DNA of 10,134 nucleotides from a virus, in the UHGV virus genome UHGV-1424210. One strand, 5' to 3'. This document shows, one piece after another, positions 418 to 9,397 of this stretch. The notes below the pieces were generated by a model, which was not told the DNA's origin, made no database searches, and worked only from the letters and a program-made list of their open reading frames with translations. The position numbers were made by a program, and so were the translations under genes. Every line of letters begins with the position of its first letter. Position 1 is the stretch's first letter.

Positions 418-758
418 ACAAAAACCTACATAAAAATTACGTATATAAACTTTTCTCTTAGCTGTAGATATATGAGATCGGATATTACTTAGATTCTTTT
501 TCACCTCTTAAATTAAAAACACAACCATGCTAAAGGCTTTGTTCGCTAAGGTTCGTAGAAGCTCGTTAGTGTTTAAAATCGTGTCACGAGTTTTTAAGCG
601 ACGCAACAAAAAATGTCGTCATTTGGCATGACACCTTAATTACCTCATTAAAAACAAATAGATAAACCATCAGGTGTTGGAACAATCAAGAAACAGAGAA
701 TAAGAACTCAGAAGAAGACATTTCAATTTTTTTCGATAGTTGACACATATAAAGAGAA

Positions 759-784
759 GATATTTGCAGATATTCCCCGATATT
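759..784. promoter_or_regulatory. Three GATATT hexamers at exact 10-bp phasing (759, 769, 779) in the AT-rich int-alpA spacer
   Basis: gatatttgca gatattcccc gatattctaa; helical phasing suggests a protein-binding array. It lies upstream of alpA and just downstream of the int stop. Confidence 0.35.
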
Positions 785-798
785 CTAAGATCTATTCA

Positions 799-830
799 CG
801 GCTGTAATCTCTTAAAGAAAAAACAGCCGT
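799..830. other. Inverted repeat ACGGCTGT (799-806) / ACAGCCGT (823-830) immediately downstream of the int stop
   Basis: Perfect 8-bp inverted repeat separated by 16 bp of A/T-rich sequence. Not a canonical terminator because no U-tract follows on the minus strand. Confidence 0.3.
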
Positions 831-2098: not shown

Positions 2099-2355
2099 AT
2101 TAACTACACCATTGACTACACCGTGCATCGTACAAGGGCAAACCGTGACGAACAAGAGCGAACAAGGAAAACAAAATTTTCCTTTATAATCATAGCGATG
2201 AATGCACACAAAACACTACCACGAACACCCGCGAACACTAGATGATAAATAACTATCATTTATATCATTTAGTTAATTAGTCTTTATTTTTCATTATGTT
2301 GCAAATAACAAGCCCGTCAAAAACAGTGATATTAACTACACCATTAACTACACCG
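2099..2355. repeat. Pair of 25-bp direct repeats, ATTAACTACACCATT(G/A)ACTACACCG, at 2099-2123 and 2331-2355
   Basis: The two copies differ at one position and are 232 bp apart. Each is itself a tandem duplication of ATT(A/G)ACTACACC. They flank the putative int promoter. Confidence 0.7.
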
Positions 2356-2386
2356 CTTCACGAACAATATCGAACAACCGCGAACA
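2149..2386. repeat. Seven CGAACA hexamers in helically phased (10-bp) groups upstream of int
   Basis: CGAACA at 2149 and 2159; at 2222 and 2232; and at 2361, 2371 and 2381, with exact 10-bp spacing within each group. Candidate integrase arm-type or AlpA/RDF binding sites. Confidence 0.6.
2293..2320 (-). promoter_or_regulatory. Candidate sigma70 promoter directed toward int
   Basis: On the minus strand: -35 TTGACG (reverse complement of 2315-2320), 16-bp spacer, -10 CATAAT (reverse complement of 2293-2298). Predicted leader of about 210 nt to the int ATG at 2075. Lies between the repeat groups. Confidence 0.35.
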
Positions 2387-3324: not shown

Positions 3325-3485
3325 TTTTATTCGTCATCACCACCAATGCAATATATTGATATGACTTGATGTTTTATTTTTCGGTGTCGATTTCGATTGT
3401 TTTTTGTTCATCACTGACGCATAACGCCCACCAGCGCAACGCTGAAAGCCAGTCAGTAAACTGGCTTCGGTCATTGTGCACTACG

Positions 3486-6895: not shown

Positions 6896-6935
6896 AGTTC
6901 AGATCTCAATTTTTCGTATATATATACAAAACAGT

Positions 6936-7250
6936 GCGGGTTATGCGGGTTAGCGGGTTATCTTCGCTTGCTAAGTATTTTTTATTCCTTAATATCAATA
7001 CATTACAAAATTAACTGTTTACTGTTTAGCCGTGGCGTAACCCGCAAAATGCTCAAAATAACCCGCAAACGGGGTTTTTTCTGCGGGTTACGCGTGGCTG
7101 TTTGCTGTCACTTCCTGTTATTCATCTGCGGGTTATAATCGCACTTTTGCGGGTTATAACTGCCGTTTTGCGGGTTACGTGCGGGTTATTGATTTCCTTT
7201 TTATTCATGCAGTTAATGCACTTATACACAGAGTAACCCACATAACCCGC
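6936..7250. repeat. Iteron array (9-bp GCGGGTTAY) flanking an AT-rich stretch: candidate replication origin
   Basis: Direct copies at 6936-6944, 6945-6953, 6954-6962, 7083-7091, 7128-7136, 7149-7157, 7170-7178 and 7181-7189. Inverted copies (TAACCCGC) at 7036-7044, 7058-7066 and 7242-7250, plus a degenerate one near 7233-7240. AT-rich region 6962-7030. Immediately downstream of the Rep stop at 7274. Confidence 0.7.
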
Positions 7251-7273
7251 AACTTTTCACCTCACACAGGGGG

Positions 7274-9397
7274 TTAATCTTCTGCCTCAGGCTGGAACAT
7301 CAGCACGTAAAAAACATGCTGCTTCCCCCCAATTTTGCCGAGAGCCTTTTTCTTGTAACGGCGATCGTTACCCGCTTCCAGCATTCCGGCAGCACTCAAC
7401 GCGCGGGCAAAGTGGGACGGGTTAAATCCCTGTGCGATCTCCCCCTCAAACACATGAGGAAACGTGTAAAAACGGAACTCATCATCTTCATTTCTGATAC
7501 TCCCCTTTCTGTATCCGGCAAGGTCTTTAATCGGTAAATCACGTTCATCACTGTTTGGGTAAGGAAGGTATCGACTGAACCCGAACGACGACAAAAACGC
7601 CTCAGCCTGTTCAACCATCTGTTTAAATTCCCTGTTACCCGTGCCGAACTCCTTCACCCAGGCATTAAAGTTATGCTGTATTGCGTCCCGGCATTCCTGC
7701 GCGGCCCAGCCAGTTACATGACCGGAAAGCACAAGCGCGGCCTCCAGTATGGCGAAACGCTCACCCACGCGGTGGACTTGCTCGCCGTAGCTCTCCGGTA
7801 TCAGGTTGCGCCACCGTTCGCGGCATTCCCTTACCGTATCCTTTGCCTCCTGCTGGTGGCCTGCCAGCCATTTAACCCACTCACGACCCGCTGCCCCGTG
7901 ATTTTCTGTCCAGGCATCCTTTAACGCGTCTGCGTGCGCCTTTCCGGTGCTGTATTCGTGAAAGTGCGTGGCTTTTTCCATCGGAACGTTAAGCAGGCGG
8001 ACAAGCTGCCCCGCTTTGACTTTTATCCCCTCCGTTTTGAGGAATGTCTCAACGTCCATTTCTCCGGTGCTGATTGCCACCGTGCGCCAGTGTTTTATCT
8101 CCCGGTTGCCGCCGTCCTTCGCCCCCTGTAATTTCCCGGAACCGTTAAACAACGTATAGGCTGACGTGGACACCTCCCGCGCGTTTCCGGCCTGGCCTAT
8201 TTCATCCAGGGGTAACAGCCCGTCGTTGTGCGCCTCTGCCTCGTTAGCGATACCTAACGCTGTGCCGTACCAGGTCAGCCGTTGTGCGTCCGGCTCTCCC
8301 CATAAACTTGATGCGATGTTCTGCGTGGTGGTTTTCCCTGCCGATGACTGTTCGAAAAGATGTACCCCGAAGCCGTCAGCACCAACAAGGCCAATCAAAG
8401 GTGCTGCCAGTGACGTGGCAACACCCAGCATCATGGACGGATTGCCACCAGCCAGCCGCGCCACGCAGTCGCGCCAGCCCTCCGACGTACCCGCAACCGA
8501 ATAGCCATTAACAGTGGCACTTTTTCCGGTAAACAGGATCGGTTTTTCAGAATCACCAATGATTGAGCCGTCCGGCATGATATACGCGCCAAAATGCCAG
8601 CCCGTTGTTGTGCTTAGCTGCCATTCCTCATGGCTTCCGCTTAACTGCATCCAGTCAGCCAGGATAGCCCTGTATTTGCCGTTTGTTGTCACGTTCAGCC
8701 CGTGATCTTTAAGCAACCGCCAGCCGTCACGGTCGCCAATGCCACCACACGGGATCGCCATTGTGATGACTTCATGGTTTGCTAATTTTTTCCAGCGCAT
8801 CACGCGGTAATGCTCTTTACCGATCGTCCCCGTTCCCAGTAGTTCAAGCGGAGAACATAACCACGTCTCAGGCCGGATAATTTCGCCTGACTGCTTATCC
8901 ACTTTGGGCGTTACCCAGAAAACACCATCGACGCGACTTTCAACGCGGGGCTTTAATTCATCATCCTGATAGCATGGCTCTTTTTTCTTTACAGGCAGTT
9001 CAACTACCTTTTTCTTTTCCGCCTGCTCTGCCCGTTCACGTTCCAGATATTCGCGCCAGTTCTCCCGTTTCTGGCTGTGCATTCCTTCAGGGTAATAATC
9101 AGCATCCCTGACACCTGCCGCTGCCAGTTTCTGCCCGATGGTATTAACAAGCCCCGGACGCAATAACCCCGCCTGGTAGAGACGCACGCGATAGCGTCCG
9201 TCCGGTACGATTTGCAGGTTGTCCAGTTCGGCAAGTTGTTGCTCTCCAAGCCAGACAGGTGGCACGTTATCGCCAGCCAGTCGCCCGTCCTGTTCCTGCC
9301 ACTGCTTCGCATGTGCCCACGCATCACTACCCGCAAAAATGATGACTTCCGTCATTTTGTCACGCGGCTGGTGTTTTAAATTTGGCGCTTTTTTCAT
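7274..9397 (-). CDS. Replication initiator (primase/helicase-like ATPase; resembles DUF927-type proteins of CP4-57/PICI-like islands), about 707 aa
   Basis: Long ORF with P-loop-like motif FEQSSAGKTT and Walker-B-like LLPLDEIG. Adjacent iteron origin. Start set at ATG 9397 (SD GGAGAGAG, ATGA overlap with the upstream ORF stop); the ORF-track start at 9412 is GTG. Family assignment is from memory, not from a search. Confidence 0.8.
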   Translation of the reverse strand: MKKAPNLKHQPRDKMTEVIIFAGSDAWAHAKQWQEQDGRLAGDNVPPVWLGEQQLAELDNLQIVPDGRYRVRLYQAGLLRPGLVNTIGQKLAAAGVRDADYYPEGMHSQKRENWREYLERERAEQAEKKKVVELPVKKKEPCYQDDELKPRVESRVDGVFWVTPKVDKQSGEIIRPETWLCSPLELLGTGTIGKEHYRVMRWKKLANHEVITMAIPCGGIGDRDGWRLLKDHGLNVTTNGKYRAILADWMQLSGSHEEWQLSTTTGWHFGAYIMPDGSIIGDSEKPILFTGKSATVNGYSVAGTSEGWRDCVARLAGGNPSMMLGVATSLAAPLIGLVGADGFGVHLFEQSSAGKTTTQNIASSLWGEPDAQRLTWYGTALGIANEAEAHNDGLLPLDEIGQAGNAREVSTSAYTLFNGSGKLQGAKDGGNREIKHWRTVAISTGEMDVETFLKTEGIKVKAGQLVRLLNVPMEKATHFHEYSTGKAHADALKDAWTENHGAAGREWVKWLAGHQQEAKDTVRECRERWRNLIPESYGEQVHRVGERFAILEAALVLSGHVTGWAAQECRDAIQHNFNAWVKEFGTGNREFKQMVEQAEAFLSSFGFSRYLPYPNSDERDLPIKDLAGYRKGSIRNEDDEFRFYTFPHVFEGEIAQGFNPSHFARALSAAGMLEAGNDRRYKKKALGKIGGKQHVFYVLMFQPEAED

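Follow-up and report, generated by a model that had tools for sequence, protein, structure and literature searches.

A phased four-unit repeat array between int and alpA in an Escherichia coli phage-inducible chromosomal island, a candidate site for an excisionase-type activator

The spacer between the int and alpA genes of an Escherichia coli phage-inducible chromosomal island (PICI) carries four short direct repeats spaced by one turn of the DNA helix. They occupy positions 758-793 on the minus strand of the stretch of DNA analyzed here (10,134 bp, hereafter the window) and read AGATCT-N4-ATATCG-N4-ATATCT-N4-ATATCT in the direction of transcription (793-758), the individual units lying at 793-788, 783-778, 773-768 and 763-758. 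Judged from its sequence and placement, the array may bind a winged-helix protein of the excisionase (RDF) type in a cooperative manner, most likely AlpA, and thereby activate alpA. This is the best explanation that could be reached and it is proposed tentatively. The evidence for it is given below together with the other explanations that were considered.

Genomic context

On many E. coli chromosomes, near-identical counterparts of the window are located between cspD/yljB and clpS. The RefSeq genes of these near-identical loci encode an integrase, a helix-turn-helix regulator, an Icd-like protein, a primase, SSB, capsid, head decoration and small terminase proteins. IHE3034 is among the 98.3% matches to the window, and Fillol-Salom et al. 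listed EcCIIHE3034 as an island at cspD-clpS whose att sequence is ATGATAGTTAT. The window element belongs to the EcCIIHE3034 type at this site. The att core lies at 2241-2260 and the similarity to single-island genomes ends at 2263. To the right of the att core, a second PICI is represented by its end (with small terminase, capsid, SSB and a 712-aa primase), so that the window contains two tandem PICIs at the E. coli cspD-clpS site. The junction of the two islands is attP-like: one island contributes the int-side arm and its neighbor the distal arm, on either side of the core GATGATAAATAACTATCAT. In the second island, twelve TGCGGGTTAY iterons (eight direct and four inverted) are found at 6934-7253, downstream of the 712-aa primase gene, and are presumably its replication origin; the first island type carries GGTGAACAG iterons in their place (8659-8842 in locus L001).

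Both genes that frame the spacer are on the minus strand. The int gene (837-2075, stop codon at 839-837) encodes a tyrosine recombinase of 412 aa, annotated in RefSeq, with an integrase and an N-terminal arm-DNA-binding Pfam domain. The alpA gene (208-417) encodes the PICI master activator, a 69-aa protein of family PF05930. An AT-rich spacer of about 420 bp between these genes had been described in the initial annotation and this description holds: the spacer extends from 418 to 836 (419 bp), its GC content is 32-36% compared to about 50% in the flanking genes, and int and alpA are both identified by Pfam. No RefSeq annotation falls within the spacer in 322 genomes. No Rfam match was accepted in the window, the sole match being a sub-threshold snoRNA at 3331-3419. 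An N-terminally extended AlpA (98 aa, starting from GTG at 504) was rejected; its frame is open but is shifted by indels between allele groups. In all the islands examined (L001-L013, L146-L158), one or two small opposite-strand genes, belonging to the YlcI/YnfO family or hypothetical, converge on alpA. The alleles of these genes, located downstream of alpA, vary independently of the array.

The phased array

The array was recognized from three GATATT hexamers present on the plus strand at 759-764, 769-774 and 779-784, in steps of exactly 10 bp as originally reported. Given that int and alpA are both on the minus strand, the hexamers read AATATC in the direction of transcription. A search for GATATT-N4-GATATT-N4-GATATT allowing up to three mismatches returned two overlapping matches for 0.01 expected, a result reached by none of 200 dinucleotide shuffles. 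The spacing is therefore non-random, and the second of these matches (769-794) exposes a degenerate fourth unit, GATCTA, at 789. The GATATT hexamer itself is abundant in the window, mostly in coding DNA (20 occurrences versus 5 expected from shuffles), possibly as a result of a codon effect (Asp-Ile, Asn-Ile); despite this excess, a phased run is encountered in the spacer only. Arrays of the RDF type are made of at least three direct repeats, one per helix turn (10-11 bp); the window carries four such units and all allele types carry three or four.

An 8-bp inverted repeat had been described along with the hexamers. It does exist, with its right arm at 823-830 as originally given, but its left arm is located at 798-805 rather than at 799-806, and instead of straddling the hexamers it sits between them and the int stop codon. 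ACGGCTGT (798-805) pairs with ACAGCCGT (823-830) and an inner TCT/AGA extension prolongs the stem, forming a stem-loop on the minus strand (798-830) directly after the int stop. The inverted repeat can be extended to 798-813/815-830, with arms of 16 positions and 81% complementarity. As a minus-strand RNA the stem-loop folds with -20 kcal/mol (z = -4.7). Two other sequence versions occupy the same place in relatives and fold as well (-17.6 and -12.8 kcal/mol; z of -4.2 and -3.1); as all three versions fold, it is the structure and not the sequence that is kept. Despite its strong stem, the structure was not called by an intrinsic terminator scan, and it is followed by GAAUAGAUC or CUUAAAAAAA with no U tract. 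The inverted repeat is treated here as an element of the int 3' end, apart from the phased array, and could serve as an insulator or an mRNA stabilizer.

Allelic variation

Thirteen E. coli spacer variants, ranging from 100% to 77% identity, were aligned. The pairwise difference amounts to 0.03-0.25 in most 20-nt segments of the spacer and peaks at 0.55 over the array, the most variable 20 nt among these 13 variants. Depending on the variant, the array contains AATATC three times, AATATCG twice, AAGTTCG twice, or a mixture of units. The GATATT hexamer can thus not be retained as a conserved feature, close relatives having AAGTTCG or mixed units instead. When further loci were included in the typing, twelve distinct array sequences were obtained and assigned to four types. 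Type I is composed of AAATCG or AGATCT followed by ATATCG, ATATCT and ATATCT; type II of AAATCG, ATATCG and ATATCG; type III of AAATCG or AAAACG, then ATATCG, then AGTTCG or AATTCG; and type IV of AAATCG, AGTTCG and AGTTCG. Relative to the remaining types, type I has one more 10-bp unit, and the unit consensus across all alleles is A-N-W-T-C-K.

What remains constant is the geometry. All the full-length alleles retain at least three units in 10/11-bp phase, the nearest unit being located 35-37 bp before the -35-like hexamer described in the next section; the four units of the window lie 37, 47, 57 and 67 bp before it. In nine alleles representing types I-IV, the pattern A[AGT][AT][AT]C[GT] is found 35-37, 45-48 and 55-58 bp before TTGAAA, and also 65-67 bp before it in type I, with no further match elsewhere in the stretch. 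This pattern was fitted to the alleles and therefore describes the array without constituting a test of it. From the unit offsets, the length differences between types correspond to one helical turn. On the basis of these alignments, the variation of the array is not random decay. The geometry is broken in two cases: in the L005/L025 allele, the loss of 28 bp of intervening DNA brings the array next to the -35-like hexamer, and the L160 allele has a 9-bp step between two units. These natural variants are possible ready-made test alleles.

The array type was compared with the AlpA allele, the hairpin type and the convergent YlcI/YnfO genes, and no pattern of co-variation was found. Both AlpA allele groups occur with all array types. 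The AlpA of the window is 97% identical (two substitutions) to WP_001206970, which is the partner of type III arrays in L004 and L006 and of a type IV array in L007.

Repeats of this kind could also be the functionless outcome of neutral replication slippage or of small duplications in dispensable DNA behind int. Units 2 and 3 are identical at 8 out of 10 positions when taken as 10-mers, type I can be described as the other types plus one 10-bp unit, the array is the least conserved part of the spacer, and the alleles with the 28-bp deletion and the 9-bp spacing do occur; these points speak in favor of slippage. Against it, the phase, the frame of the units (A...C.) and the distance to the -35 survive complete unit replacement across the four types, Tandem Repeats Finder called no repeat between positions 700 and 850 at a minimum score of 30, and the unrelated spacer of EcCICFT073 has an analogous array. 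Phase and position being kept through full sequence replacement, and the repeat finder being negative, neutral slippage is considered improbable.

The composition of the spacer raises the question of host nucleoid proteins. The IHF consensus WATCAANNNNTTR is absent throughout 418-836 when one mismatch is allowed, so that a role of IHF, named in the initial annotation as a protein to be footprinted, is not supported; the nearest IHF-like match is at 2263-2275, beside the att core. The high-affinity motif of H-NS, TCGATAAATT, is likewise absent from the array with up to two mismatches. The array might nevertheless be a part of AT-rich, possibly bent DNA bound by H-NS, Fis or a similar protein that silences alpA, in which case the phase of the repeats would reflect DNA shape and not a specific regulator. 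The low GC content of the spacer agrees with such silencing, as do the binding and repression of the alpA promoter of the Shewanella prophage CP4So by H-NS (PMC5148205) and the lack of a known island-encoded repressor in Gram-negative PICIs (PMC6092414). Apart from the missing H-NS and IHF matches, this explanation is opposed by the AAGTTCG (type IV) alleles, which are not AT-rich, and by the TpA steps present in the units, which for this reason differ from classical A-tracts. Base-specific contacts are further argued for by the conservation of the A and C positions, and silencing by a nucleoid protein is regarded as a poor candidate for the array, though it might apply to the AT-rich spacer in its entirety.

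Promoter-like site and alpA leader

A promoter-like site is located on the minus strand at 697-726, between the array and alpA. It consists of TTGAAA (726-721) and TATTCT (702-697) separated by 18 bp. Matching the consensus at 9 of 12 positions, it has no sigma-70-like counterpart elsewhere on the alpA strand of the spacer and is kept in 12 of the 13 alleles. As the sigma-70 scan was overall not above chance, with fewer such matches than in shuffles, the placement of PalpA at this site is putative. The offset of 35-37 bp between the array and this candidate is constant, with two alleles deviating. The -35-like hexamer is preceded by an A7 tract (733-727; A6-7 across alleles) and by a conserved TGTCAA (745-740). 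A start near 690, as inferred for the candidate PalpA, would centre the units at about -70, -80, -90 and -100. A plus-strand promoter from the conserved TTGACA (740-745) was rejected, no acceptable -10 being found at 16-18 bp.

Two further elements are present in the putative alpA leader. The first is a perfect 11-bp palindrome, TCGTGACACGA, at 579-589, invariant in 12 of the 13 alleles (alignment columns 261-271) and retained as a candidate operator from its sequence. The second is a CGAAC-N5-CGAACA doublet in 10-bp phase on the minus strand at 540-555, which has the same core as the arrays of the att arms, is conserved in all alleles and is likely to be the core AlpA site. RNA structure in the leader around this doublet was not significant (z of 0.2-0.7). 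A Shine-Dalgarno-like sequence, AAGAGGTGAAAAAG, is found on the minus strand at 496-509 and has no start codon after it in the window. The same exact 14-mer is present in a Shigella relative of EcCICFT073, where it comes right after an array of six units; the two spacers are otherwise unalignable.

The GTTCG motif family and the att arms

The int-proximal att arm (2149-2237, plus strand) contains two pairs of CGAACA in 10-bp phase (starting at 2149/2159 and 2222/2232, and spanning 2149-2164 and 2222-2237), and the distal att arm of the neighboring PICI (2361-2386, plus strand) contains three such units, also in 10-bp phase. Both arms therefore read TGTTCG in 10-bp phase in the direction of transcription, and these TGTTCG arrays are invariant across all alleles. 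Each arm additionally carries a ACTACACC doublet. The ATTAACTACACC doublets, at 2099-2122 and 2331-2354, are about 128-151 bp and 81-104 bp away from the core centre. A 'doubled motif' at 81 and 132 bp has been reported in helper-embedded and fis PICIs (PMC10111431), and the geometry in the cspD-clpS island is the same.

In five complete islands, phased GTTCG/CGAAC pairs are confined to the att arms, the alpA-proximal doublet and the type IV array. The array units of the window allele (ATATCG, ATATCT, AGATCT) do not match the att-arm recognition sequence TGTTCG; the att-arm unit is shared by type IV (AAGTTCG twice) and partly by type III. For 13 distant relatives of AlpA in other enterobacteria, and likewise for a second PICI family of E. 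coli, the CGAAC doublet of the spacer is found directly before alpA whatever the upstream gene. In distant relatives (L133-L144, L152, L153, L155), it is found about 40 bp before alpA within a strong hairpin (z of about -4.6), whose 3' arm is the Shine-Dalgarno sequence GAGGG. A U run comes after the hairpin, immediately ahead of the ATG of alpA. From its sequence, this hairpin resembles an attenuator or translational trap; it is missing from the window family.

The GTTCG core is of particular interest with respect to TorI, the excisionase of KplE1, whose sites, grouped in blocks by twos and threes, were defined as GTTCG, GATCG and GTCCG (Panis et al., PMC2951348). Considering that TorI accepts these three cores, the degeneracy of ATATCG, AGATCT and AAATCG does not exceed what a known RDF tolerates. 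The search for sequence relatives of AlpA did not bring up TorI, and for this reason the likeness of the motifs is taken as a lead only.

Another ligand considered is the integrase. The units would in this case be arm-type sites for the N-terminal domain of the integrase, and Int, produced from the gene just upstream, would control alpA. Int has an arm-DNA-binding domain and GTTCG arrays are found in both att arms, which is also where the arm sites of lambda Int lie. The CGAAC doublet, however, stays with alpA in relatives that have a gene other than int upstream, GTTCG has been proven as an RDF motif in the case of TorI, and the array is 1.4 kb away from the att core. Control by Int is accordingly held to be very improbable.

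AlpA as the proposed ligand

The preferred ligand is AlpA, on grounds of both format and gene content. Direct repeats in 10-bp phase are the typical binding format of excisionase-type winged-helix proteins (PMC7498355, PMC3936717). RDFs generally bind direct repeats at one-turn intervals, about three neighboring sites being required, and three is the minimum for cooperative binding by Apl; the RDFs of P2-like phages and of P4 also control promoters far from att through att-like sites (PMC7498355). The occurrence of phased GTTCG pairs at the att arms, together with the array and the doublet, forms the pattern of such dual-purpose RDFs and regulators (PMC7498355). The closest solved relative of AlpA is the GIsul2 excisionase (8C3T, E = 3.6e-9), and AlpA is the only excisionase-type winged-helix protein encoded in the island, which thus has a small RDF-like protein of its own. 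The AlphaFold model of AlpA was poor (pLDDT of 65) and Foldseek searches with this model were uninformative. AlpA being the sole protein of this type and its nearest relative being an excisionase, the simplest reading is that AlpA recognizes the GTTCG family, of which the array would be a degenerate member.

Both AlpA and the helper phage activate the alpA promoter region in related PICIs (PMC6092414, PMC11773190), and in EcCICFT073 AlpA was found to activate PalpA, its own promoter (PMC6092414). Autoregulation by AlpA is thus already known. Also in favor of AlpA are the perfect GTTCG of the type IV units and the unit frame shared by all types, and mixed alleles (ATATCG and AGTTCG) would fit a single tolerant binder. 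The CGAAC doublet that accompanies alpA in distant relatives with other upstream genes, and the six-unit array of EcCICFT073, point in the same direction. Several observations stand against it: no array unit of the window contains a GTTCG core whereas the att-arm sites never vary, the array type does not co-vary with the AlpA allele, the candidate promoter matches the consensus at 9 of 12 positions only, the L005/L025 and L160 alleles depart from the geometry, and the EcCICFT073-type array may correspond to the alpA-proximal doublet.

The array had initially been described as an operator or activator site controlling alpA. The activator alternative stands in outline and fits better than that of an operator, since the array lies upstream of the candidate promoter (the only sigma-70-like match), its format is RDF-like and PalpA is activated in related islands. 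The proposed mechanism can be briefly summarized as follows. The array would lie upstream of a weak alpA promoter, at a distance of about 70 to 100 bp from its putative start. Once some AlpA has been made, monomers would bind head-to-tail and cooperatively, one per turn of DNA. The bound protein would bend the DNA and assist RNA polymerase at the weak promoter. A positive feedback loop would then be closed, committing the island to excision and replication.

A helper-phage protein as a possible ligand

The variability of the array is also compatible with a ligand provided by the helper phage. The array would then be the docking site of an inducer, for instance an early protein of the Cox, Xis or Apl type produced after prophage induction, which would switch on alpA in the way P2 Cox acts on the phased cox boxes upstream of P4 PLL, and the array types would set the matching between helpers and islands. 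This is the main rival of AlpA, and an unlikely explanation in our estimation. Helper phages induce PalpA (PMC6092414), in EcCIMP1 even without AlpA (PMC11773190); it follows from the latter observation that spacers of this kind must contain a cis site responsive to the helper. Within a spacer that is conserved in other respects, the array varies most, and its type shows no coupling to the AlpA allele, the hairpin type or the neighboring small genes. A variable array contrasting with invariant att-arm sites is what would be expected if the array tracked an external partner. A precedent is provided by the cox boxes at P4 PLL (PMC3936717), and cross-talk of excisionases among PICI, ICE and helper phage has been shown (PMC11773190).

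The database searches argue against a helper-phage ligand. BLAST comparison of the array and of the whole spacer with 50,697 GenBank phage records gave no meaningful match and revealed no similar array, the method being insensitive to degenerate sites. In IMG/VR, the matches listed for three AATATC-N4 units comprised this PICI family and unrelated AT-rich 10-bp tandem repeats, and the E. coli-like ones among them belonged to this PICI family only; this search is similarly insensitive to degenerate sites. Mixed alleles would moreover suit a specific factor poorly. The identity of the helper-phage factor that induces alpA in Gram-negative PICIs is not given in the literature searched.

A related proposal is that the array is a swappable specificity cassette, in which the AATATC, AAGTTCG or mixed type decides the pairing of helper and island independently of AlpA. 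It is viewed as rather unlikely.

Comparison with known systems

The closest parallel is found in the cox boxes of P4. Like the array, they are short degenerate repeats 10-11 bp apart, placed upstream of a satellite promoter (PMC3936717). This promoter, PLL, drives the operon of vis, the alpA homologue, and in this respect parallels the candidate PalpA (PMC3936717, PMC10111431). The cox boxes are bound by a small filament-forming protein of the excisionase type, resulting in induction of the satellite, and a counterpart in the PICI array is putative (PMC3936717, PMC10111431). The differences are that P4 has six or more cox boxes, of consensus TTAAAG/CNCA and recognized by a protein of the helper, whereas the PICI array has three or four units of another sequence and a putative binder.

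The operators of Apl in phage 186, located at pR-pL and attP, resemble the PICI sites in that direct repeats, one per helix turn, are found both at att and at a distant promoter and are served, or in the PICI would be served, by one RDF (PMC7498355). Apl, however, represses two face-to-face promoters whereas the position of the PICI array upstream of the -35 suggests activation, and the unit sequences are unrelated. The TorI sites in attL of prophage KplE1 (GTTCG, GATCG and GTCCG) occur two or three at a time in closely spaced blocks and have a role in regulating a promoter as well (PMC2951348). GTTCG is common to the TorI sites and to the PICI att arms, alpA-proximal doublet and type IV arrays, whereas the units of the window end in ATCG or ATCT. 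The TorI sites in attL repress intS, the window units are one or two bases off the TorI cores, and a sequence relation between AlpA and TorI is undetectable.

Among PICIs, EcCICFT073 and EcCIMP1 have the same int-spacer-alpA order as the window, and their spacer is activated by AlpA and by the helper phage (PMC6092414, PMC11773190). The papers did not map cis sites, and these spacers cannot be aligned with that of the window except for two short strings. Using the coordinates of the published supplement, six GAACAA-type units in 9-10-bp steps were found in the EcCICFT073 spacer right after int, and they match the att-arm units of that island. The 14-mer shared by the window (496-509) and the Shigella relative suggests that an array of the EcCICFT073 type may be homologous to the alpA-proximal doublet of the window rather than to the variable array. 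In view of this possible homology, the EcCICFT073 array counts only as evidence that arrays are general in such spacers.

Significance

By analogy with Cox, Apl, Vis and TorI, the kind of element proposed here is a well-known one. The presence of the array in PICIs, its position and its cassette-like variation were not found described in the literature searched. PICIs are phage parasites of wide distribution, through which virulence and defence genes are spread. Those of Gram-negative bacteria have no known repressor (PMC6092414) and are switched on through alpA by a helper-phage factor. With its 36 bp, its fixed position and its natural allelic variants, the array is a well-delimited target that can be used as bait for its binder. 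It could also allow two roles to be separated, namely setting helper specificity and serving the AlpA feedback only. If the reading of the array as a specificity cassette is true, the array allele would decide which helper phages wake which island.
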